Assembly (NCBI GenBank): GCA_965368975.1
Contig: CBDUPA010000019.1
Coordinates: 64,001-128,000, forward strand
From: an uncultured bacterium
Lineage (GTDB): Bacteria > Acidobacteriota > Thermoanaerobaculia > Multivoradales > JAHZIX01
Reading direction: 5' to 3'
Length of the DNA stretch: 64,000 nt
Shown here: positions 2,222 to 47,588 of the stretch, in pieces
How positions within the stretch are numbered: the stretch's first letter is position 1
How the letters are laid out: every line of letters starts with the position of its first letter
Made by a program: the position numbers and the translations under genes
The notes under the pieces: model-generated
The model's database searches: none
The model's input: only the letters and a program-made list of their open reading frames with translations
What the model was told of the DNA's origin: nothing

Positions 2222-5200
2222 TCATTCCGTCTCTTCGCTCTTGCGACTCACCCGCTGCAGCGCCCGCGCGATGACCTCTGCCTGCCCCGGCCGTGACTCG
2301 TGGGCGATGACAGCTTTGGCCAGTTCACCGACAGTCGGCCGCGCCAGCTCGAAGAAGGCTGGCAGCGGGAACTCGACGCGGAAAGTGCGGCGGACGCGAC
2401 TGACGATCCGCGTCGCCAGCAGCGAGTGACCGCCCAGATCGAAGAAGTCGTCGTCGACTCCGACCCGCTCGACGCCCAGCACACGCCGCCAGATCCCGCA
2501 CAGCACCGCTTCTACTGCTGTACGTGGTGCGACGAAGAGAGTTCCCGTGGCCGTTCCGTCCGGTTGCGGCAGCGCGCGGCGGTCGAGCTTGCCATTGGCA
2601 TTCACCGGCAGCTCTGCCAGGCGGACGAACGCAGACGGTACCATGTAGCTCGGCAGCCGCTGCAACAGGAACATTCGCAACTCGCTGGAGATGTCGACCA
2701 AGGAAGTGCCAGCTGCAGCCACATCAGCCTCCGTATCCCCCACCGGGACGACATAGGCCAGCAAGCGCTGGCCACCGGTCGCGGCCAGGGTCGGGTCAGC
2801 AGCCGCGACCACCGCCGCTTGGCGCACGTCGGGGTGGCTTTCCAGCACGGCCTGCACTTCGCCCGGCTCGACGCGGAAACCACGGATCTTGACCTGGAAG
2901 TCGGCGCGATCCAGGTATTCGATCTCGCCGTCCACGCGCCAGCGCGCCAGGTCACCACTGCGGTACAGACGCGCACCGGCGGCGGCCACGCGGCCGGCGA
3001 GTGGATGCGGCCGGAAGCGGTCCGCGGTCAAGGCCGCGCGTGCCAGGTAGCCCCGCGCCAGGCAATCGCCCCCGATCCACAGCTCGCCCGTCGTGCCCAG
3101 CGCCACGGGGTACAAGTCCGATCCGAGGATCTGGATCTGCGTGTTGGGCAAGGGTACACCGATCGGTGGTCGTGCCGGCCACTGCTCGGGCTCTCTCTGG
3201 GACTCGGGCTGGCCGGGGCCGCGCCGGAAGTAGCGCGCGGTGACCACGTGGCTCTCCGACGGACCGTAGTAGTTGCCCAGAACCAGCTCCGGACGCTGCT
3301 CGAACAGCCGGCGTACCAGCGGCGTTACGTGCTGCTGCTCCCCAGCGGTGATCAGCGCGCTGAGCGACGACGCCGGCCAGCGCCCCTCCGCCGCTTCCTC
3401 CGCGAGCTGCTGCAGCAAGACGACCGGTACCAGCGCCTTGTCGACCCGCTGGCGCTCCAGGTAGTCGGTGACCTTCGGCACATCGCGGCGCGCCGCATCG
3501 TCCAGGAAGCACAGCGTGCCGCCAGTGACCCAGGCCAGGAAGGTCTCGTTGTAGCAGGCGTCGAAGCCGACCGGCGAGAAGCCGAACACGCGCGGGCGAT
3601 CCCCAGTGTGCCAGGCCGCCTGGTCCCAGGCCACCAGGTTGCTCATCGCCCGGTGGCTGAGCTGGACGCCCTTGGGCCGGCCGGTCGAGCCGGAGGTGTA
3701 GATGACGTAGAACAGGTGGTCGGGATGCAGTTCGGGCGGCGGCAGAAGGGCCTTTCGGCCTCCTTGCTGCCGACCCGTTTCGGGCACGGGTACTGCAGCC
3801 GTCACGCGATCGAGCGTATCGAGTTCCACAACTTGTAGGTGCGGCAGCGCCGCGAAGCGGGACCGTAGTGACGAATTCCCTTCCGTATTGAGCACCAAGA
3901 GCCTGGCACCGCTGTCCTGCAGTTGGAACTCGAGCCTTTCCGGCGGAACCTCTGGGTCCAGCGGTACGCACGTGGCGCCCGCGAGCAAGACGCCGAGCAT
4001 GGACACCAGGAGTCCCGTCGAACGCGGCAGGCAGAACGCTACCGGCACGTCCGGCCCGGCGCCGAGGGCCCGCAGCTGGTAGGCGAGATCCTCGGCGCGA
4101 GCTCGCAGCTGCCCGTAGCTCAGCTGGCGCTCCGTGTGCGAGCCTACCGTCAGCGCCAGTGCGTCCGGGGTGCGCGCGGCCTGGGCGAGCCAGGCGGCGG
4201 GCAGCAAGCGCCGCTCCGGCGCCAGCTCGAGCCGGGTGTCGTTGCGCTCGACCACCAGCAGCTGACGCTCGGCCGGACTGAGCCGCGGCAGGTCGCCCAG
4301 CTGTTCTGCCGACACATCCGGACCCGACAAACCCTCCAACAAGCGTTGCAGCTGGCCGAGCAAACGCAGCGCGGTCGTGGCGTCAAAACGTTCCGGATCG
4401 TAGAGCAAGCGCAGGCTGAGCCGGTCGCCCGGCGCCGCCACCAAGGTCAGCGGGTAGTTCGTCTGCTCCGCCATCTCGACCCCGCGCAGGCCCAGCCCAC
4501 CCCCGGCAGCGGACGCGCTCGCGCCGACCGGGAAGTTCTCGTACACCAGGATGCTGTCGAACAAGGGCTGCCCCGGCGGCACGCCACTCCAGGCTTGCAG
4601 CTGCGCCAGCGGGCTGTACTCGAAGCGGCGCAGGGCCGCCAATTCCTCGTGCAGCGCGCGCAACCAGTCCGCCGTCTTGGCGCTGGGCGACACCTGCCGA
4701 CGGACTGGCAAGATGTTGATGAACAGCCCCACCGTCTCCTGCAGACCCGGCAACGGCGCCGAGCGTCCTGCCGTGATGGCGCCGAAGACGACTTCCGTCT
4801 CACTGTCGCCTCCAGTGCTTCCGCCACGCGCGCCGCGCTGTCCCCACAACGTCTGGGCCAGCAACAAGGCCCAGGCTCCCTGCAACAGCGAGTTGGTGGT
4901 GATGCGCAACTGGCGGGCGCGCGCCTCGAGATCTTCGCTCAGCTGCGGCGTCAGGAAGCTGCGGTGCTCGTGCTGCGAACCACCCGTGCTGCCCTCACGC
5001 GCCGGACGATCGGCCGGCAGTGGCGTCGGCGCGGCGATGTCGGCCAGGCGCGATCGCCAGAACTCCTCGGCCTCGCCCGACGCCAGGCGCGGTTGCAACC
5101 AGGCGACGAAGTCGCGGAAGCGACCGGCAGGCGGCGCGATCTCGACGCGCTGCCGCTGACGGGCGGCGCGATAGAACTCGAACAACTCGCGCAGCAGGAT

Positions 5201-17200: not shown

Positions 17201-20200
17201 GTGATGACTCCACAGGAAGCGGTAGCGCGTCGCCCCCTCCGCCTGTGAAGACGTCAACGCTGCGAACTCACGCGCCAGCAGCAGCCGCATCAGCGGCGCG
17301 GCACCGGCGGCAAAACCCTGGCGACGGTCGGCGTCGGCGAGGCCCTGCCACTCTGCCACACGGACAGGTTCCGGCAAGCGGCTCAGGTCGACTACCTGCA
17401 GCGGCAGCGGGTGCAGCGCCAGCGGGGATCCGCCGTCCGCCAAAGAATCTGACCAGGAATCCGACCAGGACGGCCACGCCCGCACCGCCTGCAGCGGCGT
17501 CTCGGTGTCGAGCGCGAAGAAGCCGGTGCGCAGGACCGCGTGGCGCTCGAGTAGCTGGTGCCAGGCGCGGTGGAAGGCCTGCACATCGAGGCCCGGGGCC
17601 AGGCGCAGCGTCAGCTGCTGGACGTAGAGCCCCTGGCCCGGCGCGCGCAAGCTGTGGAATAGCATGCCCTGCTGCATCGGCGTCACGGGATAGATGGCTT
17701 CGGGACGCCGGCCGTCGAGCGTCATGCGGACTAGCAGGTCGCGTGCGGCTGCCGCCAGCTCTTCGAGTGCCGAGGTCAGGCCATCGAGCAGCAGCTCGAC
17801 GGTCGCCCGCTGATGCCGGCTCGGCGCATAGCGCAGCGTCATTTCCAGGCGACCTTCGCGCACCGCGGCTTGCAGCTCCAACGCCAGGGGCCGCGGCAGC
17901 TCGGGGTCGACCTGCGGGCCGATCCAGGCCGGCACGTCCAGCCTCGGCTCCCAGAGCTGCGAACCGCCGGCAGCGTCGAGACGTCCCAGGTAGTTGAAAC
18001 CCAGGGTCGGCCGCGCCTTGGGGATCGGCGTCGGGAGCCCCTGCAGCACGCCCCATTCCGCGCGGCCATCCAGGCCGGCCAAGGCCCCCATTTCTGAGGA
18101 ATGACCGTCTGAGGCATGACTATCCGTAGCGTCACCCGGCCCGGGAGCGACACCGCGACGCAGCTCGTCCTGCGCCGTCCGTACCTTTTGTAGCGCCTCT
18201 GCCGGCTTCGCCGTGCCAGCACTCGCAGGCTGCAGCACCAGCGGAGTCTGCACGGTGAACCAGCCCGCGGTTCGGCTGACGTCGAGGGCACCGTCCAGCA
18301 ACACGTCGCGACCGTGGCCTTCGAGCTCGACCAGCAGAACCGGATGCCGCCGGTGCTGGCCTTCTGCCGGGCCGTCTGCTGGCTTCTCGAGTGGCTCCGC
18401 CTGCAGGTGTCGCGGCCAGGCGCGCAGCAGGGCGCTGAGCACGGCGTCGGCCAGGCTGCCGCCGTAGACACTCAGCGCATCCGTCAGCAGCGTTCCGGTG
18501 AGGTCGGTACTGAGGCGCCGCTCGACGCTCGCCTGCCGACCGAAGGTGTCAACTTCGGGCGAAGCAGTTTCGCGAGCAGCTCGGACATCTTCGGGCAGGT
18601 GCAGCACCGGCGCCGCCAGGTATGCCGCCCAGGCTGCCGCCCGTGCGGGAGCTTCCGGTGCCGCCGCGAGCTCGGCCAGGTGGCGACTCCAGGCGGTCCA
18701 GGGCGCCGTCTTGGGTGGTAGTCGACGCTCCAGGACGAGTGATTCCAGGTCGTCGAGCAGCAGGCGCCACGAGACCGCGTCGACCACCAGGTGGTGGCAC
18801 AGCCAGATCAGATACTCCTGAATGGGCGACTCCTCACGAGGAGATACACCCAGGACATGCAGCAGCCGCACCAGCGGTCCGCGTGCCGCGTCGAACGACG
18901 CCTGCGCTCGCGTCGCCAGGCGCTGCGCTTCGGCGGGCCGCCTCTCGGCGGGCAGGCCGCGCAGGTCGAGACAGGCGTACGGCGTTTCCGCGCGCGCCAG
19001 CGGCGGCAGGATCAGCGGCTCGCCAGCATTGTCCTCGGTTGCGGAGGCCCCTTCCGCCGGGACCCGCCAGACCAGGCGCAGCGCGTCGTGGTGACGCAGC
19101 AGACGGCCGAGCGCTCGATCGAGATGCCCCGGAGACACCTGGCGAGACGGCTGCAGCAACAAGGCTTGGTTGAAGTGAGCGGGCGCCCCGAGATTTCGCC
19201 ACCAGCGCTGGATCGGGGTCGGCGGTGTTGGGCCACTCACGGGACCCTGCTCCGCCTCGGGGCGAGCGCGCTCGGGCGACGCTTGCAGGTGCGCGGCCAG
19301 GCGGGCGACGCTCGGGTGTGCGAAGACGTCGCGCGCGTCCAGCTGCACTCCGGCTTGCTGCGCGCGGGCCACCAGCTGGATGGTCAGGATGGAGTCACCA
19401 CCCAGGGCGAAGAAATCGGCCTCGGCGTCGAAGGCTTCCAGATCCAGTTCCGCGCCTGCTGCCTGCAGGCCCAGCACTTGGATCCAGATCTCGGCCAGGC
19501 GACGCTCGAGGTCGCCCGCGGGTGGCCGGCCTACGGTACGGGTCGCACCCGCAGCACTCCCAACCCCGCCAAGCGCCGCCGAGCTGAGCTGCGGTGCCGG
19601 CAAGGCTTTCATGTCGAGCTTGCCACTGGCCAGCAAGGGCACGGTGTCCAGCACCACGAAGGCGGCCGGCACCGCGTAGTCCGGCAGGTGGGCCGCCGCC
19701 AGCTGGCGCAGGTCGTCGGCGGCCGGATCGGCGCTGCCCGCCGGCGTCACGTAGGCGGTCAGCAGGCGCTCGCCGGGGTGATCCTTGCGCAGCACCACCG
19801 CCGCCTCGCGCACCGCCGGGTGCTGGCGCAGCACGGCCTCGATCTCGGCCGGTTCCAGGCGGAAGCCGCGCAGCTTGATCTGGCGGTCGGCACGGCCCAG
19901 GAACTCCAGCTCGCCGCGAAAATCGCGCCGGGCCAGGTCTCCGGTGCGATAGAGCCGGCCACCTGCCACGCTGGCTTCGACGCCATCCGGAACGAACGCT
20001 TCGATGCCATCCGGAACAAACACCGTCGCCGTCTGCGCCGGACGGCCGAGATAGCCGCGTGCCACGCCGGGCCCACCGAGCACCAACTCGCCAGCGACGC
20101 CGCGCGGCACCGGTTGCTGGCCCAGTGCCTCCGCACCTGTCGCCAGCAGGTACAGGCGGACTCCGGCCAGGGGGTGTCCCAAGCGCAGGTTGCCCTGGCT

Positions 20201-29200: not shown

Positions 29201-32200
29201 CAACGCTGGCTGCGCCCAGCGCGTGCGCCGCAGCTGTGCCGCGGCCTCGCTGTCGTCGGCGGGCGCGTGCAGCAGGGTGCGCAGATCAAGCCCCAGGCGC
29301 GAGCGCAGGTGCTCGGCTCCCTCGTCGATCCAGCGCCGGTACTCGGGCTCGGTCTCGTACAGGGCCGCGCCCATGCTGGGGAACTGGCTCCCCTGCCCCG
29401 GCAGCAGGAAGGCGACGCGCGGCCGGGCACTGCCGGCGGTGATCGCGCGCAGGTGTGCAGGCACGTCGCGGCTGCGCAGCGCGCGCATGGCTCCGGCCAC
29501 ATCGCGGCACACCACCAGGCGACGTGTCGGCCAGCGTGGACGGCCGCTGCGCAGCGTATGCGCCACATCCGCCAGATCGGGGGCGGCCAGATCGGGGGCG
29601 ATGCGCTCGGAGACGACCTGCTCGTCCAGCCAGGTCGCCAAGTCCTCGCAAGTGGTGTGCAGGGCCGCCGGTGTGTGCGCCGATAACAGCAGCAGGTGCC
29701 AGGCGTCCCCGGCGGCGCTCTCGGCGGGTGGCTTCGGCTCGTCGGCGACAGCTCCGGCGATCGCGGAAGGTGCCTGCTGCAGCACGACGTGCGCGTTGGT
29801 GCCGCCGAGCCCGAAGGCACTGACACCCGCACGGCGCGGCAGCTCGGAGGACGGCCAGGACTCGGCCTGGCCGCTGACGTAGAAAGGCCCCTCCTCGAAG
29901 GGAGCCGCCGGATTGGCCGTCTCGAAGCCGGCGGTCGGCGGTACGACGCCATGACGCAGCGCCAGCACCGTCTTGATCAGGCCAGCGATCCCCGCCGCCG
30001 CGCCCAGGTGACCGATGCTCGCCTTGACGGCACCCAGGGGTCGCCGGTCGTCGACCTCGGCGAACGCCCGGTTGAGCGCCGACACTTCGATCGGATCGCC
30101 CAGCTGCGTGCCCGTGCCGTGCGCCTCGACATAGCCGATCGTGGCCGCCTCGACCGCAGCGTCGGCGTGCGCGGCCGCGATCACGCGGGCTTGGGCCTCG
30201 ATGCTCGGGGCGGTGAAGCCGGCTTTGTGCTTGCCGTCGTTGTTGACCGCCGAGCCCAGCACGAGGGCATGAATCGGGTCCCCCGAGGCCAAGGCATCAT
30301 CGAGCCGACGCAAGGCCACCAAGCCAGCACCACTACCCCAGACGGTGCCGTCGGCCGCCGCATCGAAGGCTCGGCAGCGACCACTCAGCGCATCGATGCC
30401 GCCTTCTTCGTACAGATAGCCCGTGACCTGCGGCACCTTGATCGACACACCACCGGCCAGGGCCAGGTCGCAGTCACCCGCGCGCAGTGCACGGCACGCC
30501 AGGTGCACCGCCACCAGGGCGGTGGAACACGCCGTCTGGACGCTGACGGCGGGGCCGCTGAGCCCCAGGCGGTAAGCCAGCTGGGTGACGAAGTAATCAC
30601 GGTCCGCGCCCATCGCCAGCTGGTAGGCGCCCACCTCGCGCAGCAGGTTGGGATCGCGTTGCAGGTAGTGCAAGAAGTAGGTGGAGAGCGTGCCACCGGC
30701 GAAAACGCCGATCGAGCCGGCAAAGCGTTCGGGATCGACCGCAGCATCGTCGAGAGCGAGACGCGCGGTCTCGAGCAACAACCGCACCTGCGGATCGAGC
30801 AGCTGAGCCTGACGCGGCGTCAGCCCGAAGTGCTCGGCGTCGAAGTCCTCGACACCGTCGAGCACGCCCCGACCGCGCACCAACTTCGGATGCGTCACCA
30901 GCTCGGCAGGCAGGCCCGCCGCCAGCAACTCTTCGTCGGTGAAGCGGCGCACCGCCTCGCGACCGTCGAGCAGCTGCCGCCAGAAGGCGTCGACATCGGG
31001 CGCACCCGGGAACCGGCCCGCCATGCCGACGATGGCGATCGGTACGGCACTCTCGCCAACACCGGCACTGGCACTGGCACTGGCACCGGCCGGCCGAGAC
31101 GCTTGCAGCACCTGGGCTCGGACCGCCGGCTCCGACGTCTCCAGCAGGCGTGCCAGGTAGCGAGCCTGCCCGCGCACCGTCGGATGCGCGAACAGCTCGA
31201 CCAGCGGCAGCTCACGGCCCGCCAGCTGCTGCAAGCGCGCGTGCAGACGCACCAGCAGCAGCGAGTGACCGCCGAGGTCGAAGAAACTGGCTTCCGGGTC
31301 GACCGCTGGCACTTCGAGCAACTCGGCCCACAACGCCTCGATGTCGCGCTCCAGCCGTTCTTCCGGCGTCGAGCCGGGCAGCAGCGGCGCGGCGGCCAGT
31401 TCGGCTCCAGAAACGGCTCCAGGCACTACCTGTGCCGACGAAGCCAGTACCGACGAAGCCAGTACCGACGAAGCCAGTGCCGACGAAGCCAGCGCCGGCA
31501 GACGCTGGGCCAGGGCGCGGCGATCGACCTTGGCGTTGGCGGTCAGCGGTAGTCGATCGAGGACCTCGAAGGCCGCGGGCACCATGTAGGCCGGCAGACG
31601 CTGCAGCAACGCGGCGCGTACCGCTCCGGGGTCGATCCCGCCCGTGGCAACGGCCCCCGCCGATCCCGCCTGGGGCACAAGGAACGCGACCAGGCGACTG
31701 GCCACTCCCAGCTGCGGTCCCCTCAGCCCAGTACTACTGCTCGGGCCCTGCGCCAGCACCACCGCCTCGCGCACCTCTGGCAGGGCCACTAGGACCGCTT
31801 CGATCTCCGCCGGTTCGACGCGGAACCCGCGAATCTTGATCTGCTTGTCCCGGCGACCGGCGAACGCGACTTCGCCATTGGGTAGATAGCGGCCGAGATC
31901 GCCGGATCGATAGAGGCGAATCTGCGACTGGGTGCGGGCAGCGTCAGGATGGACTACATCCGGTGTGAACGCCAGAGCCGTGGCGCGGGGATCGTCCAGG
32001 TAGCCGCGCGCCAGGTGCGGACTGCGCACGGCGATCTCGCCCAATTCGCCGACGCCCGCCGGGCGGTGGTCGCGATCCAGCACCAGCAACTGCACATCGC
32101 GCATGCCGTGCCCGAGCGGCAGCACGGGACGCGCAACATCGGCCGCCGAGGCGACGTGGTACGAAACCGCTCGCTGGGTCTCGGTCGAGCCGTAGAGGTT

Positions 32201-35200
32201 GACCACGGTGACCGACGGCGCCAGCTGCCGCAGGCGCTCGACATCGCGACCACGCAGCGCCTCTCCCACCAGCAGGACTCGGCGCAGCGCGGGCAGGCGC
32301 ACTGGTTGCGCACGGACAGCCTGCGCACGGACAGCCTGCGCACGGATCGTGTCGCCTTCGCACAAGACCTGTCCCAGCGCTGGCGTCAAGTGAGCGACCG
32401 TCACCCCGACCTCGGCCATCCAGGCGGCCAGCCGACCGGCAGCGGTCAAGTCTCGGGGATCGGGAACGGCGAGCTCAGCGCCCAGGAAAATCGGCGTGAA
32501 CAGGTCGCGCTGCAGCGGATCGTGACCAAGGCCAGAGAGCAGGCTGAAACGGTCGTCCGGTCCCATTTCCAGCGTCGCGCACTGCCAGGGCAGGAAGTGA
32601 GTCAGCGGTCCGTGGCGCCCCTCGATTCCCTTGGGGACGCCAGTGGAGCCGGAGGTGAAGGCGACCAGCGCCAGGTCTTCGGGACCGATCTCGACGTCGG
32701 GCACGGCGGTTCCGGTCGTCGGTAGGCCTGTCGTCGGCAACTTCTGGACGAAGTCGAGGGTCTCGGCTTGGCTGCCGACCGGCAGCTGCAGCAGGGAGGC
32801 CGTGCGCTGCTGGCACCAGGTCGCGACACTGGGACCCTCTTCGTCGCGCGCCGGCGCCAGGCTAGACAGCACCGCGGTTTCTGCCGCTGGTGGCAAGAGT
32901 TCCAACACGGCGCTCGGTCGCGCCGCATCGAGCATCTGAGCACGACGCACGGCTGGCCACGCCGGGTCGAGCAGGACCAGCGCGGCCCCCGCCTTGAGAA
33001 CGCCGAGGACCGCCGGCAGCAACACCGCGGCACGCCACGTCAGGATCGCCACGCGGTCGCCGCGCCGTACCTCGTGCGCCACCAGCCAAGCCGCCAGCGC
33101 GTCACTGACGACCGCGACCTCGCCATAGCTCCAAACGCCGTGTCGATCCCGCACCAGGGGCCTCTCCGGCTGGCGACGCGCGTGCTCGGCGAAGTGCTGG
33201 TGGATCGGGCCGTGCCAGCTGGTCTCCAGGATCTGTCGTGGGTCTGGCAGCAGCTGCGCCGCCTCGACAGTGCGCAAAGGCAATGCCGCCAGCTGCTGAT
33301 CAGGGTCCGCCACTGCCGCCGTCAGCAGCGTTGCCAGCTGGCGGGGCCAATCCTCCATGCGCGCGGCGTCGAACAGCGCGGCGTCGTAGTGTAGCTCCCA
33401 GCGCAAGCCGCCATCCGCCAGTTCCTCAATGTAGAAGGTGACGTCGAACTTGGCCGGCAGTTCCGGCGGCGTCAGCAGGTCGACCTCCAAACCGGCCAGC
33501 GTCGGCGTCACCGGCGGCAGGTTGAGCAGGTTGACGAAGACCTGGAACAGGGGCGTTCGAGCCGGGTCCCGCTCCGGGCGCAAGCGCTCCAGCAGCGCCT
33601 CGAACGGGACGTCCTGATGCCCGAAGGCCCCGATTGCGGCGGAACGGACGCGTTCCAGGAGTTGCAGGAAGCTCAGCCGAGGCGTCACCTGGGCCCGCAG
33701 CACCAGGCTGTTGAGAAATAGGCCCACGATGCTCTCGGTCTCGACGTGCTGGCGCCCGGCCACCGGCGTGCCGATCGCGATGTCCGTCTGACCGCTGTGG
33801 CGGGCCAGCAAGACCTGGATCGCCGCCGTCAGCACCATGAACAGCGTCGCTCCGCCGCGCCGCGCCAGCGCCCGCACGCCATGGACCAGGGTCGCGGGCC
33901 AGTGTTGATGAACACTGCCACCCGAGGCATCGGGGTCTCGTCGCGGCGGTCGTGGACGGTCGGTGGGGAGTTCGAGGACTTCCAGCCCCTCCAACGTCTC
34001 GGACCACCAGTCGAGCTGTGCCTGTGCCCGCCGGGCGACAAAGCCGCGCTGCCAGAGCGCGAAGTCGGGGTACTGCAGGCGCGCGGGCGATTCCGTGTGC
34101 CTCGCGCCCTGTCGCTCTCCTGGGCGCTCGCCTGGCTGGTCGTTTGGCTGGTCGCCTGACTGGTCGCCTGGCTGGCCCGCCTGCCAGCCCGCCTGCAGAT
34201 CACGCATCATGAGCCCGAGCGACCAGCCGTCGGCGGCGATGTGGTGAACGTTGAGGTGCAGGTGGTGCCGGTCACTAGCCAACCGCAGCAGCAGTGCCTT
34301 CAGCACCGGGCCGCGCGACAGGTCGAACGACCGGCCACCATGCGCCGCGCCCAGTTGCCGCGCCACGGCGTCGGCTTCGGCGGCATGCGCATGAGAAAGC
34401 GTCAAGCGGCGCAGATCGATCACGGGCAGCCGTAGCGCCGCCGGCTCCTGCACGATCTGCCGAGGCTCATCGCTGGTATTGGACACGAAGACCGTGCGCA
34501 GCGCCTCGTGGCACGCCACCAGGTGGTCGAGCGCGGCGCTCAGCCTGGCGACCTGGAAGGTCCCGATCAGTCGCAGACCCGCGGCAATGTTGTACGCCGC
34601 GGACCCGACCTGGAGTCGGTCGAGCAACCACAGACGTTGCTGCGAGTACGACAGGGGAAGTTCGCGCAGCCCTGGCGGCCGGACGGTAGGGGCTTCCTCG
34701 TAGGTTACCTCTTCGATGGAGGCCTGCTCGATGCCCACTTCCCCGATAGGGACCTGCTCGACGGATGCCTGCTCGATGGCTACTGGCGGCGCTGGCACGG
34801 AGAGCGGCAGCTCGGACCAGCGCAGCAAGGCTTGTCGCCGCGCGCCGGCCGGCAGGCTAGGGAGTTGGAGATGGGGTAGCTGCTCGAGCGGCGTGTCGGG
34901 CTGCGCCAGAATCACCTCGAGCAGGTTGGCGATGTCATCCACCCAGCGCAGTGCCGTCGCGTCGTCGAACAGGTCACGAGCGAAGGTGAGCTCACCGCGC
35001 AAGCCCTCGGGCCAGCGCTGCACCATCAGGGTGAGGTCGAACTTCTCCGCCGGCAGGACGGGCGCGGCCGAGACGTCGAGGCCATGCAAGGCAGGTGGCT
35101 CGAGCACCCGGTCATTCCACGCCAGCATGGTCTGGAACAGGGGCGAGCGGCTGCGCTCCGGTCTGGTTTCGAGCGCCTCGGCCAGGCGTTCGAAGGGCAG

Positions 35201-42043: not shown

Positions 42044-43051
42044 TCAGCCCTTGTGCCTTTGGTGCGCCGCGAGCGCCGACTTGGCGATACCTGCGGCGTC
42101 GAGGCCAAAGTGCGCCAAGTGCACGTCGTGCGTTCCGAGAACCGGCGAGAAGGTATCCGGAATTCCGAGGATCTTCATCGGTGTCGGCCGGCGCGTGGCC
42201 AGAGTCTCGGCCACCGCACCACCCAGGCCGCCATAGACGTTGTGCTCCTCGACGGTGAGGATCAGGCCGGTCTCCTCTGCCGCCTGCTCCAGCAACTCGG
42301 CGTCGATCGGCTTGATGCTGTACATGTCGATGACGCGTGCGTCGATACCCTGCTCGGCCAGCTTGGCCGCCGCCTTCAGGCTCTCCGGCACCACCGCGAT
42401 GCCGGCGGCAACCAGCGTCAGGTCCTTGCCGTCGCGCAGTACATGGCCCTTGCCGATCTCGAAGCTGGCGTTCTCGTCGTAGACCTGCTCAGCATCGTCC
42501 ATACCGATGCGCAAGAAGGTCGGCCCCTCGTACTCGACGCAGGCCATCGTCAGGTGGTAGGTCGCCACACCGTCGGCCGGTGCCACGACGGTCATGCCGG
42601 GCAGCGCACGACCAATGGCGATATCCTCAATGGCGTGGTGGGTCGGACCTGAGAAGCCCGACTGCATGCCGGCGAAAGTGCCGAAGATCTTGACGTTGGT
42701 GTTGTGGTAGCAGATCTCCAGGCGCACCTGCTCACAAGCACGCATCAAGGCGAAGTCGGCGAAGGTGTTGACCATCGGAATCTTGCCGCGCAACGCCAGG
42801 CCCGAGGCGACGCCGATCAGGCTGGCCTCGGCGATGCCGACGTCGATCCAGCGGTCCGGGAACTCGTCGCGAAAGTCGAAGCCGAAGAAGTCGCCCAGGT
42901 CGGCCTCGACCGACCACACGCGTTCGTCCTGCTGGCCGGCGTGCAGCTGGCCCAGACGGTTGGTGCGCACGGTCGACAGGCCGTACTTCTCGATCCACGC
43001 GGCACTGCCGGGTGCCGGCTCCGTTGTAGGAGGTGTCAGACGGCGACTCAT
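42044..43051 (-). CDS. Split transketolase C-terminal (beta; pyrimidine-binding + C-terminal) subunit, copy 2
   Basis: 335 aa; DVGIAEASLIG (ThDP-activating Glu), RACEQVRL, GPTHHAIED, GKDLTLVAAG, SIKPID, TVEEHNVYGGLG. ATGA overlap with the upstream N-subunit stop at 43048-43051. Confidence 0.9.
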   Translation of the reverse strand: MSRRLTPPTTEPAPGSAAWIEKYGLSTVRTNRLGQLHAGQQDERVWSVEADLGDFFGFDFRDEFPDRWIDVGIAEASLIGVASGLALRGKIPMVNTFADFALMRACEQVRLEICYHNTNVKIFGTFAGMQSGFSGPTHHAIEDIAIGRALPGMTVVAPADGVATYHLTMACVEYEGPTFLRIGMDDAEQVYDENASFEIGKGHVLRDGKDLTLVAAGIAVVPESLKAAAKLAEQGIDARVIDMYSIKPIDAELLEQAAEETGLILTVEEHNVYGGLGGAVAETLATRRPTPMKILGIPDTFSPVLGTHDVHLAHFGLDAAGIAKSALAAHQRHKG

Positions 43052-43908
43052 GATGCACTCCGCGGCCGGATGGCCTCCAAATCCTTGAACGCCTGCTCGC
43101 GCTGCTCGGCATTCATCTTGCCATAGTGCCAGGCGTGGTTACCCTCGGCGTAGGAGATGGACTTGCCCTTGACGGTCTGCGCGATGATCACCGACGGCTT
43201 ACCGGAGGTGAACGGAATGTCGTGCAGCGCGGAACTCAGCGCCTCGACATCGTGGCCGTCGATCTCGCGCGCGTCCCAGCCGAAGGCGCGCCACTTCTCG
43301 GCGAACGGCTCCAGCGACATGATGTCCTCGGTCTTGCCGTCTTCCTGCACGAAGTTGCGGTCGACGATCGCCACCACGTTGTCCAGCTTGTAGTGTGCGG
43401 CGGTCATCGCGGCCTCCCAGATCGAGCCTTCCTGGCACTCACCGTCGCCCAGAACGACGTAGACACGCCGGTCTTCGCCGTCGTGCTTGGCGGCCAGCGC
43501 GATGCCGTTGCCTACGCCCAAACCGTGGCCCAGCGAACCGGTCGCCAGCTCGATGCCCGGAATCGCCTTCGACGGATGGCCAGCCAGACGGCCGCCGGTC
43601 TTCTTGTACTCCTTCAGCTCCTCCACCGGGAAGAAGCCACGCTCGGCCATGGCGGCATAGAGCGACGCGCTGGAGTGCCCCTTGCTGAAGATGAAGTAGT
43701 CGCGGTCTTCCCACTTCGGGTTGCTGGGATCGACGCGCACCACGCCGTCGAAGAGCAGCACGGTGAGGATCTCTACCGACGACATCGAGCCGCCCAGGTG
43801 GGCGCCCGGCGAGTCGGCGCACATCCGGACGATGTGTTCGCGCAGGGTATAAGCGATGGCGCGCAGGTCGTCCGCGGAGGCGGCATTGGTGGCGCTGGCG
43901 GTAGGCAT
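43048..43908 (-). CDS. Split transketolase N-terminal (alpha; ThDP-binding) subunit
   Basis: Likely start ATG 43908 (AAGGAG at 43915-43920), 286 aa; the track's longer ORF overlaps the aminotransferase. Motifs GAHLGGSMS, FSKGHSS, LAGHPS, ATGSLGHG, GDGECQEGSIWEA...DRN (ThDP/Mg motif), TVKGK...AWH. Confidence 0.92.
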   Translation of the reverse strand: MPTASATNAASADDLRAIAYTLREHIVRMCADSPGAHLGGSMSSVEILTVLLFDGVVRVDPSNPKWEDRDYFIFSKGHSSASLYAAMAERGFFPVEELKEYKKTGGRLAGHPSKAIPGIELATGSLGHGLGVGNGIALAAKHDGEDRRVYVVLGDGECQEGSIWEAAMTAAHYKLDNVVAIVDRNFVQEDGKTEDIMSLEPFAEKWRAFGWDAREIDGHDVEALSSALHDIPFTSGKPSVIIAQTVKGKSISYAEGNHAWHYGKMNAEQREQAFKDLEAIRPRSAS

Positions 43909-43999
43909 AGGTTGCTCCTTCAGGCGTATATTGACGATGCTCTTTCGATATGTTTCTTCAGCAATTCCGGACCAGATTAGGCAGTTCAGAACAGCCAGG

Positions 44000-45334
44000 T
44001 CAGAACAACACGACCTCGCCCTCCCAGGGCTCGCGGTACTCGATCGACTTGGCGTAGCGCACGAACTCATCGCGGTTGGCGAACACCTTCTCGAACGCCG
44101 CGGCGTACAGGTCGACGTTGGCCGGCTCCATGAAGCTGGCCATACACAAGCGCTTGCCAACCAGCATCGTGCTGCGAATGACGTCCAACGTCTGCGGGTA
44201 GTCGTGGATGTCGTACTGAATGTCGCGCGAGTTGTGGCCACACGACCACGGGCAGCCACGGCCGTACCCGTCCTTGTTCTGGAACAGGTGCTGCCCCGGC
44301 AGTGGACGCGTCTGGTAGTGGATCAGCGGCACGCCCTCGGCCGCCATCACGTCGTCCAACGCCTTGCGCATCACGCCGGCATCCAGATCGAGGCCCGCCT
44401 CCTCCGGCTTCACGCGGAAGCGGAAGTGGTGGTAGACGTGGGTGCTGCCCTCGGGCACGTGGGGCGCTTCGAGTCCCGGTATGGCATCGAAACAAGCACG
44501 CAGCCGATCGGCGCCGGCTTGAACCCGCGCGATGTAGTCGTCGTAGCGGTCGAGCTGGCTGAGCGTGAACGCCGCCAGGATGCTGCTGAAACGGTAGTTC
44601 CAGCCCATGGTCATGGCGTTGTAGTCTCGCTCCTGCCCCTTGACCACCTTCTCACCGAACATCTTGACCATGTCGGCTCGGTCGCGCAGATCGCTGTCGT
44701 TGGTGGTGAACAGACCACCCTCGCCGGCCGTCGCGAGGTTCTTGCCGGCCATGATGCTGTACGTGCCCATGTCGCCGACATTGCCGGCCTGCTTGCCCTT
44801 GTAGAGGGCACCCGGTGCCTGTGCGTTGTCCTCGATCACCTTGACGCCGTGGCGGTGGGCGATCTCGATGATCGGATCCATGTCCGCCGGTAGGCCGTGG
44901 AGATGCACCGCGATGATCGCCTTGGTGCGATCGGTGATGTGCTGCTCGAGCTTCGTCGGATCGAGGGTATAGGTGCGCGGATCGACATCGGCGAACACCG
45001 GTAGGCCCTGGTGGTGGATGATCGCCGAGGCCGAAGCCAGGAACGACAGCGCCGGCACGATGACCTCGTCACCCGGCTCCACTCCCGCCGCCACCACCGC
45101 CGCGTGCAACGCCGCGGTACCGCTGTTGACCGCGATGCAGTACTTGCTGCCCACGTAGTTGGCCCAGCGCTCTTCGAGCGCCGGCACGTCGTGCGTGTTG
45201 ATCCAGCTCAAGTTGCCGGTACGCAGGCTGTTCGAGACGGCTTCGATGTCAGCTTCATCGACGATCGGCCAGGTCTCGGTGATCGCACCCGTGGCGACAG
45301 CGGGCGAGCCGCCGTGAATCGCTAGTTGACTCAT
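44000..45334 (-). CDS. DegT/DnrJ/EryC1/StrS-family PLP aminotransferase
   Basis: 444 aa; AVNSGTAALH, PGDEVIVP, VFADVDP, VHLHG, IEDNAQAPGA (PLP Asp), YSIMAGKNLATAGEGG (Schiff-base Lys), GWNYR. Confidence 0.93.
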   Translation of the reverse strand: MSQLAIHGGSPAVATGAITETWPIVDEADIEAVSNSLRTGNLSWINTHDVPALEERWANYVGSKYCIAVNSGTAALHAAVVAAGVEPGDEVIVPALSFLASASAIIHHQGLPVFADVDPRTYTLDPTKLEQHITDRTKAIIAVHLHGLPADMDPIIEIAHRHGVKVIEDNAQAPGALYKGKQAGNVGDMGTYSIMAGKNLATAGEGGLFTTNDSDLRDRADMVKMFGEKVVKGQERDYNAMTMGWNYRFSSILAAFTLSQLDRYDDYIARVQAGADRLRACFDAIPGLEAPHVPEGSTHVYHHFRFRVKPEEAGLDLDAGVMRKALDDVMAAEGVPLIHYQTRPLPGQHLFQNKDGYGRGCPWSCGHNSRDIQYDIHDYPQTLDVIRSTMLVGKRLCMASFMEPANVDLYAAAFEKVFANRDEFVRYAKSIEYREPWEGEVVLF

Positions 45335-45345
45335 TCCATGTGCTC

Positions 45346-46350
45346 CTAAGCTGACTTTCGTTCCAGCACCTGCTTGGCGGTGGCGGCGATCGAAGCCGCG
45401 TCCATGCCGTACCAGGGCAACATCTCTTCTTGCGGACCAAACTTCTCGGGGAAGGCGTTGTCGAGCCCGACACGTGCCAGCGGCACCGGAGCGTGCTGCA
45501 TCAGCACCTCCGCGACCGCGCAGCCCAACCCCGCGTAGATGTTGTGGTCCTCCACCGTCACCGCCGCGCCGCAGGCCGCCGCCGCTTCGGCGATCGCCTC
45601 GCCATCGAGCGGCTTGAGCGTGTGCACGTTAACCAGCCGAGCCCCGATACCGTCGGCTCGCAGCTGCTCGACCGCCGCTTGCGCCTCGGCCACCATGAGG
45701 TTGCCGGTGGCGAAGATGGCAATGTCGTCACCGTCGCTCAGTTGCACGGCCTTGCCGATCTGGAAGTCGTAGTCGTCCTGGTACACCTGCGGCGTCTCGG
45801 CACGGCCGACCCGGATGTACACCGGACCGTCGTGCTCAAAGGCTGCTCGTGTCGCCTTGTACGTCTCGATCGAGTCAGCCGGCGACAGCACCACGAAGTT
45901 GGGCAACGCCCGCGTGATCGCGTAGTCCTCGATGCAGTAGTGCGTGCTCGCCGCCAGGCCACCCGAAGTGCCGGAGTAGTAGCCGATCAGCTTGACGTTC
46001 GAGTTGTGGTAGGCGATGGCCAGTCGCACCTGCTCGCAGGCGCGCATGATCAGGAACGAAGCGAAGGAATTGACGAAGGGAACCTTACCGCGTTTGGACA
46101 TGCCCGCAGCGCAACCAACCAGGTCGGCCTCAGAAATACCCAGTTGCACCCAGCGCTTCGGGAACACCTCGTGGAAGGGAACCGACGGCATGCCGAGGTC
46201 ACCTTCCAGCGAGTAGAGGCGCTCGTCCTCGTAGGCCAGTTCCAGCTGTGCCATGCGGCACACTTGGCGGCTGGAAAGCCCATAGTGGTCGAGCCATGCC
46301 CCGGAGCCGGGACGCAACTCTTCCGGCCGAGACCAGTTGGTCTGAATCAT
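45346..46350 (-). CDS. Split transketolase C-terminal (beta) subunit, copy 1
   Basis: Likely start ATG 46350 (or GTG 46353) behind GGAGGAG, ~334 aa; LGISEADLVG, RACEQVRL, STHYCIED, GPVYIRVGR, TLKPLD, TVEDHNIYAGLG. Confidence 0.9.
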   Translation of the reverse strand: MIQTNWSRPEELRPGSGAWLDHYGLSSRQVCRMAQLELAYEDERLYSLEGDLGMPSVPFHEVFPKRWVQLGISEADLVGCAAGMSKRGKVPFVNSFASFLIMRACEQVRLAIAYHNSNVKLIGYYSGTSGGLAASTHYCIEDYAITRALPNFVVLSPADSIETYKATRAAFEHDGPVYIRVGRAETPQVYQDDYDFQIGKAVQLSDGDDIAIFATGNLMVAEAQAAVEQLRADGIGARLVNVHTLKPLDGEAIAEAAAACGAAVTVEDHNIYAGLGCAVAEVLMQHAPVPLARVGLDNAFPEKFGPQEEMLPWYGMDAASIAATAKQVLERKSA

Positions 46351-46413
46351 CACTGCTCCTCCAATTGTAGATGCCCGATAGCGGACCAAAGTAAATCAAG
46401 GGAAACGGCGGCC

Positions 46414-46441
46414 ATTGTATCGCTTCGCGGAACGAGTTCAA
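46414..46441 (-). promoter_or_regulatory. Candidate sigma70-type promoter for the transketolase/aminotransferase/megasynthetase operon
   Basis: Minus strand TTGAAC (46441-46436), 16-nt spacer, TACAAT (46419-46414), in a locally AT-rich patch ~65 bp upstream of the first cassette gene. Confidence 0.5.
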
Positions 46442-46763
46442 GCTTCAGACTACCGATTCGCGCTCAACTGCCATTCCGGATCCCCGAAAGACACGAGCTG
46501 ATACGGAGATCGAGGTCGGAAGTTGGGTCCGTAGACCAGTCCCTCGTCCTCGAGCACGGACCACTCTTCACGCCAGCCCAGCCGTCGAAGACAGCGACGG
46601 CCGGAGCCGGAGCTCACCGTATGGGCCGTCGGCGGCCCGTGCACCGGCGGTGGATGCCCAAGGATCTCGAGAACCGCGACCTGCCTGTAACGGCGTCACA
46701 TCCGGCGAAGTCCCATGAGCGAGCCAATCGGATAGACTCGAGGCCTCTCAACCGAGACCGAAA

Positions 46764-47588
46764 ATGAAACCGATCTCAGCACCGGAGTCTCCCGACATGC
46801 CGGCCGGCCAGCCCGCCTGGGCGACTCCTGTCTCGCACGACGCTCACGGAACGTTCGCCGACCTGGACCTCGACGGCATGCGGCACCGCCTGCGCTGGAT
46901 TCCACCGGGAACCTTCCTGGCAGGATCTCCCCCCAGCGAAGGCGGCCGCTATGCCTGGGAAGGGCCACAGACCGAAGTGACGCTACAAGGCTTCTGGCTG
47001 GGGGAAACCCCCTGCACGCAAGACGTCTGGCAAGCGGTGACCGGAGACAATCCGAGCAAGTTCGTCTCTCCGCGACGCCCGGTCGAACAGGTCAGCTGGG
47101 ACCAGTGCGTCGCCTTCCTGGAGCAGTTGAAGACCCGAGTGCCGTCGCTAGAGCCGCGCCTGCCCACCGAGGTGGAGTGGGAATATGCCTGCCGTGCCGG
47201 AACCTCGACCAGCACCTATGCCGGCGAGTTGGAGATCCTGAGCCCGTACAACGCGCCACTGCTCGATGAGATCGCCTGGTACGCGGGCAACAGCTGCCAC
47301 GACTTCGACCTGGACGCTGGTGTCGACGCGACCCGCTGGGCAGACAAGCAATATCCGGGCGACCAGGCCGGTACACGCCTCGTCGCGTCGAAGCGGCCCA
47401 ACCCCTGGGGTCTCTATGACATGTTGGGCAACGTCCTGGAGTGGTGCCAGGACACGGTCGGCTCCAAGCGCGTCAGCCGTGGTGGTTCCTGGAGCTACAG
47501 CGCTCGCTGCCTGCGCGCCGCCTACCGTGGCTGGTGGCCACCCAACTCGCGCTTCTGCGATCTCGGCTTCCGGCTCGCGCTCAGCTAA
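46764..47588 (+). CDS. FGE-sulfatase (SUMF1/EgtB/PvdO-like, C-type-lectin fold) domain protein
   Basis: 274 aa; WIPPGTFLAGS, EGPQTEVTL..FWLGETPCTQ, RPVEQVSW, RLPTEVEWEYACRAG, PNPWGLYDMLGNVLEWC, RGGSW...R...R...LGFRL. No FGE CxxxxC catalytic motif and no obvious signal peptide. Confidence 0.9.
   Translation: MKPISAPESPDMPAGQPAWATPVSHDAHGTFADLDLDGMRHRLRWIPPGTFLAGSPPSEGGRYAWEGPQTEVTLQGFWLGETPCTQDVWQAVTGDNPSKFVSPRRPVEQVSWDQCVAFLEQLKTRVPSLEPRLPTEVEWEYACRAGTSTSTYAGELEILSPYNAPLLDEIAWYAGNSCHDFDLDAGVDATRWADKQYPGDQAGTRLVASKRPNPWGLYDMLGNVLEWCQDTVGSKRVSRGGSWSYSARCLRAAYRGWWPPNSRFCDLGFRLALS

Follow-up and report, generated by a model that had tools for sequence, protein, structure and literature searches.

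One alpha and two beta transketolase subunits with a Fic25-like aminotransferase beside lipopeptide synthetase genes of an uncultured acidobacterium: a candidate carrier-independent route to an amino-diol building block

The DNA analysed here, 64,000 nucleotides of an uncultured bacterium of the Acidobacteriota (assembly GCA_965368975.1, contig CBDUPA010000019.1, positions 64,001 to 128,000; called the window in the following), contains at 42044-46350 a quartet of genes for a split transketolase (TK) with one alpha subunit (TKalpha) and two different beta subunits (TKbeta1 and TKbeta2), together with a DegT-type aminotransferase (DegT), directly ahead of a very large lipopeptide synthetase gene. 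The genome from which the window was taken, G000, is rated 99.3% complete, and C19, C20 and C29 are contigs of it. We favour the reading, to which we give even chances, that the quartet is a carrier-independent variant of the ketol extension and following transamination that lead to 2,6-diamino-5,7-dihydroxyheptanoic acid (DADH), and that it would provide an amino-diol amino acid for the adjacent synthetase. A 2-amino-1,3-diol unit as the product, the acceptor, an alpha2-beta-beta' assembly of the enzyme and the delivery to the nonribosomal peptide synthetase (NRPS) are what we infer from the evidence given below.

All four genes lie on the minus strand. TKbeta1 (45346-46350, 334 amino acids, aa) has the Pfam domains Transket_pyr and Transketolase_C and begins with an ATG preceded by GGAGGAG; it is followed by DegT (44000-45334, 444 aa; PF01041, E 6.4e-85), TKalpha (43048-43908, 286 aa; Transketolase_N, E 1.3e-45, its start being read from the sequence) and TKbeta2 (42044-43051, 335 aa, again with Transket_pyr and Transketolase_C). 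The spacings are, in this order, 11 nt, 91 nt, a 4-nt overlap of the TKbeta2 start with the TKalpha stop, and 72 nt to the megasynthetase gene B1 (2222-41971, minus strand), which is a single open reading frame (ORF) of 13,249 aa with its ATG at 41971. The ORFs and the Pfam matches agree with an earlier note on this DNA, which had described four co-oriented genes with gaps under 100 bp ahead of an NRPS-polyketide synthase (PKS) that is initiated by a fatty acyl-AMP ligase (FAAL). The same note had let the cassette head its own operon behind a candidate promoter, and here only the first part stands. Upstream of TKbeta1, an intergenic region (46351-46763) leads to a gene resembling formylglycine-generating enzyme (FGE)/sulfatase-modifying factor (46764-47588, plus strand), which is situated between two synthetase units, and as this upstream gene is divergent, the cassette heads its own transcription unit. 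The region's single sigma-70-like match (46441-46414, minus strand) compares with 0.6 matches expected at random, so that the promoter is not above chance.

The strongest link to known chemistry comes from the aminotransferase. Among solved structures the best relative of DegT is Fic25 (8GYH/8GYJ; E 4.9e-107, 361.6 bits over residues 1-425), whereas Ser5 (E 9.5e-66) and perosamine synthase (E 6.6e-63) match more weakly and sugar aminotransferases score at most 216 bits. As published, 8GYJ is Fic25, which turns carrier-bound ADOH (2-amino-5,7-dihydroxy-6-oxoheptanoic acid) into DADH in ficellomycin biosynthesis (PMC11726168). Residue K198 of DegT aligns with the active-site lysine motif and is invariant in seven orthologues; moreover, the long alpha7-alpha8 loop, which separates Fic25 from Ser5, is present in DegT without a gap over Fic25 residues 227-252, and the equivalents of Fic25 E237 and Y240 are retained. 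With Fic25 as the top solved relative, the tie to vazabitide, azinomycin and ficellomycin chemistry that had been claimed for this locus is borne out. A route via 3-amino-5-hydroxybenzoic acid (AHBA) or aminoshikimate was considered and rejected, as AHBA synthase reaches only E 4.4e-38 against 4.9e-107 for Fic25; no ORF resembling a 3-deoxy-D-arabino-heptulosonate 7-phosphate (DAHP) or 3-dehydroquinate (DHQ) synthase was seen among the scanned neighbours of the cassette.

To our knowledge, the only characterised pathways that combine a TK with a Fic25-type enzyme make the DADH precursor of aziridine warheads, with a substrate protected by a carrier or an acetyl group. For azinomycin, the literature describes the extension of N-acetyl-glutamate semialdehyde by the TK AziC5/C6, transamination to DADH, sulfation and aziridine closure, and a version of this route with an amino-group carrier protein has been proposed for vazabitide (PMC9570651). 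The cassette resembles these pathways (AziC5/AziC6 with AziC7, Fic25 and Vzb9) in that a split TK adjoins a Fic25-type DegT in a peptide natural-product cluster. It also fits the logic of a semialdehyde that is extended by a C2 ketol and then transaminated, which is published for azinomycin, and its relatives of a minimal form (see below) carry a sulfotransferase, as do the aziridine-forming pathways. In contrast, an amino-group carrier protein was not found here, nor were genes like LysX/Z/Y or AziC2-C4; the DADH pathways have one beta subunit instead of two; their hosts are Streptomyces, whereas the host here is acidobacterial by source names; and G000 has seven extra partner genes, but no sulfotransferase of the minimal-form type.

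All three TK halves have the split TK of Carboxydothermus hydrogenoformans (6YAK/6YAJ) as their best solved relative, with E values of 1.3e-82 for TKalpha, 4.1e-69 for TKbeta1 and 2.7e-71 for TKbeta2. They share with it the two-gene alpha/beta architecture, but differ from it by altered clefts, by a separate beta clade and by one alpha serving for two betas. TKalpha, the half that binds thiamine diphosphate (PP half), retains in an alignment to human TK the equivalents of H37, H77, H110, of the GDG...N185 metal site and of H258, and tblastn shows it as the sole Transketolase_N half in G000 besides the full-length housekeeping TK on C20. TKbeta1 and TKbeta2 are 43-44% identical to each other, and both retain the cofactor-activating glutamate (E366) and the aromatic pair packing on the pyrimidine; E366 is kept in 81 of 81 representatives of the beta1 clade and in all but two of 113 beta2 representatives.

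It is the substrate cleft in which the two betas depart from ordinary split TKs and from each other. The cleft was read in human TK numbering at R318, S345, E366, H416, D424, Q428, R471 and R474, and at these positions 19 of 21 ordinary split TKs read R-S-E-H-D-H-R-R. The beta1 clade reads R-(Y/P)-E-Y-A-H-R-R in 71 of its 81 representatives, the other ten varying only at 416 or 345 and keeping both arginines where aligned, and beta2 reads (V/I/F/T)-x-E-F-S-H-R-(V/M/L) in about 101 of 113, where x stands for position 345, a column in which the alignment of beta2 is unreliable. In TKbeta1 itself E366, R318 and R474 are kept, with Y in position 416 and A in 424; TKbeta2 retains E366 and carries V318, F416, S424 and M474. 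Thus, of the five residues of the sugar-phosphate cleft (R318, S345, H416, D424, R474), TKbeta1 keeps only R318 and R474 and TKbeta2 none: the His and Asp that read the sugar phosphate and its 2-hydroxyl are lost in both types, and the two arginines of the phosphate clamp are kept in beta1 and both lost in beta2. We take residues D469, H461 and R520 of Escherichia coli TK to be the equivalents of the beta positions that are substituted here. The E. coli mutants D469S/A/T, H461S and R520V/Q are reported to show raised activity on the non-phosphorylated propionaldehyde (PMC3657141), and the combination of a TK with a subsequent transaminase serves as a designed route to 2-amino-1,3-diols (PMC5813273). 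The natural betas are substituted at the same three positions (A/S, Y/F and, in beta2, V/M/L) as these mutants; the latter, however, are man-made, single-chain and assayed with hydroxypyruvate, whereas the enzymes here are natural and split.

On a tree of 73 beta proteins, made by a quick search with SH-aLRT support and no bootstrap, beta1 (SH-aLRT 96) and beta2 (SH-aLRT 99) form separate clades, which together with a small third group make up one clade (SH-aLRT 99) apart from the ordinary split TKs; a grouping with the latter, against which the two betas were checked, was not found. All four genes, both betas included, are under purifying selection. Between two genomes with an extended form of the cassette (G035 and G063), the ratio of nonsynonymous to synonymous substitution rates (dN/dS) is 0.10 for DegT, 0.08 for alpha, 0.135 for beta2 and 0.128 for beta1, and between two genomes with the minimal form (G136 and G169) it is 0.28, 0.21, 0.44 and 0.24, respectively. 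That there are two different betas, as the earlier note had stated, can therefore be extended to two distinct, conserved and selected proteins, which fits two active sites on one shared alpha. The rule of one alpha per beta in split TKs is broken in G000 and likewise in 11 of 11 loci that are long enough to show the full set, all of which have one alpha and both beta types.

Modelling of the subunit complexes, which had been suggested for this locus, gave a less clear result. The predicted complex of alpha and beta1 scores 0.56 (single runs 0.56, 0.15 and 0.64), the best of three controls scoring 0.00, with an agreement of contacts between runs of at least 2% and a partner predicted local distance difference test (pLDDT) value of at least 91. 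Of 157 solved complexes, 116 attain the mark used for such predictions, as do two of 215 mismatched pairs, but at scores of up to 0.60 only 18 of the 157 and both of the mismatches do so. As the similar complex 6YAK is solved, the pass may reflect memory or likeness, and the prediction lends weak support to a pairing of alpha with beta1.

The absence of a LysW-like carrier, first seen in the window, extends to the whole genome and beyond. The LysW model (TIGR01206) has no match in G000 nor in any of five other cassette-bearing genomes searched, and TIGR00761 and TIGR01850 have none in G000, the controls giving their signal in both searches; furthermore, no LysW-like tail was found in a motif scan of the ORFs of G000 and of 440 kb of related loci. 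With family models, ArgB, ArgC and ProA were not found in G000, and Asd is present with 426 bits against a cut-off of 301. Since Asd is present and ArgB, ArgC, ProA and LysW were not found, aspartate semialdehyde (ASA) is favoured as the acceptor. As an observation in its own right, G000 may lack the usual routes to glutamate semialdehyde, the models for argB, argC, proA and lysW being without a match. Two further candidates were set aside: ArgC was not found in three of six cassette-bearing genomes searched, which weakens the case for N-acetylglutamate semialdehyde as the acceptor throughout, and an Asd-like gene on C29 was dismissed as a member of the cluster, as it sits in a phospholipid operon with a phosphatidylserine decarboxylase and a CDP-alcohol transferase.

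The quartet also recurs in other genomes, as a search for the gene neighbourhood proposed beforehand revealed. Among 200 other genomes of the same order, which were searched for DegT orthologues, six have one (63-71% identity), and in all six TKalpha and a beta2-type gene lie next to it; a beta1-type gene is found as well in all four with long contigs. When metagenomes were scanned with seven aligned DegT proteins, 22 loci were obtained, of which 21 have a DegT identity of at least 56%. Of these 21, 19 have a gene for a TK subunit next to DegT, the contigs of the other two ending at DegT, and the 22nd locus (50% DegT identity) has no TK. A contig scan with a single DegT retrieved relatives of 32-46% identity, among which none of 80 loci has an adjacent TK, so that it is uninformative on the cassette, and in a phylum-wide sample three of 400 genomes have a DegT match at E <= 1e-90 (41-43% identity). 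Protein searches listed about 77 beta1-type clusters (at least 56% identity), more than 100 beta2-type clusters and, for the aminotransferase, more than 119 (at least 57%). Where source names are given, they are Thermoanaerobaculia/Acidobacteriota and Geminicoccaceae and, for DegT and beta2 only, also Amycolatopsis, Lentzea, Jatrophihabitans and one metagenome-assembled genome of the Mycobacteriales. The DegT and beta2 proteins of Amycolatopsis acidicola, A. magusensis, Lentzea and Jatrophihabitans have identities of 57-61%. Beta proteins of the actinomycetes Amycolatopsis, Lentzea and Jatrophihabitans group with beta2 and have the same signature as it, and no named actinomycete appears for the beta1 type among the matches listed. 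The association with NRPS genes holds in part: they lie within the fetched DNA of eight loci, but not in that of three extended loci, L129, L134 and L139 (L numbers denote fetched loci), so that an NRPS need not be what the cassette serves in every case. No publication describing the cassette was found in a literature search, to which subscription journals were mostly out of reach.

The cassette occurs in an extended and in a minimal form. In the extended genomes G035 and G063 the gene order is acyl-CoA ligase-MacB-AldDH-M24-DegT-TKalpha-TKbeta2-RaceA-RaceB-FeADH1-TKbeta1-FeADH2, where AldDH is an aldehyde dehydrogenase, M24 a hydrolase resembling DoeA, RaceA and RaceB are racemase-like and FeADH1 and FeADH2 iron-containing alcohol dehydrogenases (Fe-ADHs); this core order is shared by L129, L134 and L144, which have in addition a GNAT-like protein and a protein with a leucyl-tRNA synthetase (LeuRS) editing domain. 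G000 has seven conserved partner genes outside the window, namely the two Fe-ADHs, the aldehyde dehydrogenase, the DoeA-like hydrolase, the two racemase-like genes and the acyl-CoA ligase, but unlike in G035 and G063 they are scattered. RaceA and RaceB (C19:19431-20183 and 18699-19427) directly follow the third synthetase gene B3, FeADH1 lies at C19:10729-11877, and the acyl-CoA ligase, AldDH, M24, FeADH2, a LeuRS-editing-like gene and two MacB genes are located on C29 beside further NRPS genes. M24 is closest to the ectoine hydrolase DoeA (PDB 6TWK, E 4e-61; NCBIfam DoeA_2, E 1.5e-100), the top NCBIfam match of FeADH1 is the choline dehydrogenase GbsB (E 1.8e-100), and AldDH matches succinate-semialdehyde, betaine-aldehyde and aminobutyraldehyde dehydrogenases, with the scores of all three below the curated NCBIfam cut-offs. 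For RaceA no PDB relative was found by sequence, and the Atlas yields only the generic Asp/Glu-racemase family. A DoeA-like M24 protein beside an aldehyde dehydrogenase of the succinate-semialdehyde dehydrogenase (SSADH) kind recalls the catabolism of ectoine and hydroxyectoine (DoeA/EutD, Ssd/DoeC), from which the genes here differ by their sub-cut-off scores, by the biosynthetic setting with TK and DegT and in that no other ectoine genes were seen here.

The minimal form (G136, G169, L131 and L136) consists of DegT-alpha-beta2-beta1 and a sulfotransferase only, and orthologues of M24, Race and FeADH1 were not found anywhere in the genomes of G136 and G169. Since the minimal form does without the partner genes, the quartet is the constant core of the cassette. 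The sulfotransferase-like gene (247 aa, weak PF03567 match; L092:13649-14392, L131:14221-14961, L136:4073-4816 and L090:4166-4906) follows TKbeta1 in the minimal form with 71-81% identity and is absent from G000. Its presence recalls the sulfation that precedes aziridine closure in DADH pathways.

We propose that TKalpha would pair with each of the two betas, since neither of them has another partner in the genome, and that this would give two kinds of active site, beta1 with a two-arginine anion clamp and beta2 without it. The TK would lengthen an aldehyde that has no 2-hydroxyl, probably ASA taken as a free amino-acid semialdehyde from primary metabolism, by a two-carbon ketol unit. The Fic25-like DegT would then aminate the new ketone, the order with the TK first being assumed by analogy with AziC5/C6 and AziC7/Fic25. 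From ASA, this would give 2,5-diamino-4,6-dihydroxyhexanoate. In G000 the GbsB-like Fe-ADH and the SSADH-like aldehyde dehydrogenase may oxidise the CH2OH group of the product, the two racemase-like proteins and the DoeA-like hydrolase may also act on it, and the product would enter the NRPS line. The need for two betas could lie in two acceptor classes, in two successive extensions or in a mixed alpha2beta1beta2 enzyme, all of which fit. A more far-reaching version, which we regard as distinctly unlikely, is a three-subunit TK in which alpha is shared by the clamp-bearing beta1 and the clamp-less beta2 and works with the Fic25-like enzyme in a carrier-free cascade. Its two sites would either extend a substrate by C2 twice in succession or act on two classes of acceptor, with beta2 using a non-phosphorylated donor such as hydroxypyruvate, which could be regenerated from serine by the aminotransferase.

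Several points weigh against the DADH-like extension of a free semialdehyde. Beta2 is relaxed in the minimal-type genus (the dN/dS of 0.44 between G136 and G169), where the beta2 of G169 also carries an insertion, with R at the position of H428, and as beta2 lacks every phosphate-binding residue, the C2 donor for its site is unexplained. ArgC is present in three of five other cassette-bearing genomes searched, where N-acetylglutamate semialdehyde may still be the acceptor, and the extended loci L129, L134 and L139 show no NRPS gene within 17-21 kb of fetched DNA. 

Four other explanations have to be weighed against these findings. In one, which appears unlikely to us, the acceptor is not derived from an amino acid: an aldehyde made by an Fe-ADH (or a fatty or hydroxy aldehyde) would be extended and aminated, and in the extended form the GbsB-like Fe-ADH and AldDH would oxidise the CH2OH to give a beta-hydroxy-alpha-amino acid for the NRPS. 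FeADH1 being nearest to GbsB and AldDH to aldehyde dehydrogenases of the SSADH/betaine-aldehyde kind, the adjacency of FeADH1-TKbeta1-FeADH2 and of AldDH-M24-DegT in extended loci and the change of D424 to A or S, which suits aldehydes without a 2-hydroxyl, would all agree with it. However, the minimal cassette keeps both betas without orthologues of the Fe-ADHs, AldDH, M24 or the racemase-like genes, Fic25-type enzymes use amino-acid-derived ketols, and the two arginines of beta1 suit a carboxylate or a phosphate. It is improbable that one of the betas is a non-catalytic paralogue with a structural or regulatory role next to a single TK activity. The loss of all phosphate-clamp residues in beta2, together with the insertion and the R for H428 in G169 and the dN/dS of 0.44 already mentioned, could be understood in this way, but both betas retain the cofactor-activating Glu, and His 428 is present in nearly all copies. 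Each clade has a conserved signature (81 and 113 representatives), the two betas both have a dN/dS of 0.13 between G035 and G063, and in actinomycetes it is beta2 that accompanies DegT, with no named beta1-type protein there among the matches listed.

The membership of DegT in the sugar-aminotransferase family might also point to the tailoring of a keto-sugar, in which a nucleotide-activated sugar would receive a two-carbon branch and an amino group and decorate the lipopeptide or the cell surface. This we consider highly improbable, as no nucleotidyltransferase, nucleoside diphosphate (NDP)-sugar (4,6-)dehydratase or glycosyltransferase was seen in the scan of ORFs that flank the cassette in G000 and its relatives, and DegT reaches 361.6 bits with Fic25, but no more than 216 with any sugar aminotransferase. 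Finally, the systems QncN/QncL and NapB/NapD supply a glycolyl unit for tetrahydroisoquinoline antibiotics, and in a similar manner the TK could feed a glycolyl (hydroxyethyl) unit to a ketosynthase-acyltransferase-acyl carrier protein (KS-AT-ACP) module. The downstream synthetase does have one PKS module lacking a ketoreductase (KR), but neither a lipoyl/E2-type acyltransferase domain nor a free ACP was seen in the scanned neighbours, a dedicated aminotransferase would have no role, and the cassette is also found where the fetched DNA shows no PKS module, so that the chance of this explanation is close to negligible.

The synthetases next to the cassette are of unusual size. B1 starts with an AMP-binding and a DIP2-like FAAL C-domain and an ACP, followed by condensation-adenylation-thiolation (C-A-T) modules and one KS-AT-ACP without a KR; in total it has eight A-T modules, extra C/E-like domains and no thioesterase (TE). 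Behind it lies the 5' part of gene B2 (1-2131, minus strand; 2,346 aa), which runs past the window edge, and on C19 B2 is followed by B3 (12,943 aa) and then by RaceA and RaceB. According to the domain map, B1, B2 and B3 together (13,249, 2,346 and 12,943 aa; to C19:20260) comprise 21 A-T modules and one KS-AT-ACP without a terminal TE. Two A domains have unusual pockets, namely that of B1 module 2 just before the PKS module (31000-32700; DPRHLVLRA) and that of B2 module 1 (C19 about 63500-64500; DIESMGTVV). The latter looks lysine-like and may be a candidate for a diamino acid; A-domain assignments were not used as evidence. On the other side, beyond the FGE-like gene, lies the TE-terminated end of another NRPS, and the neighbouring line (C29 with C19:111581-148059) ends in a TE. 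At the join of C29 and C19 there is no sequence overlap and the frames are merely compatible, in that an A domain breaks off behind its A3 motif at the C29 side and is taken up again near A4/A5 on C19. The FGE-like gene at 46764-47588 is one of more than 30 tblastn matches, which are paralogous copies, in G000.

Further observations concern the surroundings of the cassette. Next to the extended cassette, and often accompanied by a GNAT-like protein, a free-standing protein of 442-580 aa with a LeuRS editing (CP1) domain is found repeatedly (G000 C29:25165-26907, minus strand; L129:5430-6866; L134:6160-7488; L139:10667-12106). Just upstream of its minimal cassette, G169 encodes a class II lanthipeptide synthetase (DUF4135 and LanC-like; L092:4203-7493, minus strand) and an ABC transporter, and at the start of contig C19 two tandem, near-identical genes for 768-aa Ser/Thr kinase-TPR proteins are found (C19:222-2528 and 2584-4890, plus strand).

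A TK/Fic25-type pair thus exists in the absence of a carrier protein and together with another beta subunit of different build. The cassette extends across more than 100 protein clusters from soils and sludges, and its DegT/beta2 part also occurs in cultured Amycolatopsis and Lentzea. The cassette offers a concrete, testable case of one alpha subunit with thiamine diphosphate (ThDP) that would serve two types of active site, and its betas show natural substitutions at positions that engineers mutate to open TK to non-sugar aldehydes. Moreover, it marks a building block to seek in very large, unexplored lipopeptide assembly lines. If the three-subunit version were true, it would represent a widespread way of making amino-polyol building blocks, so far undescribed, in Acidobacteriota and beyond.

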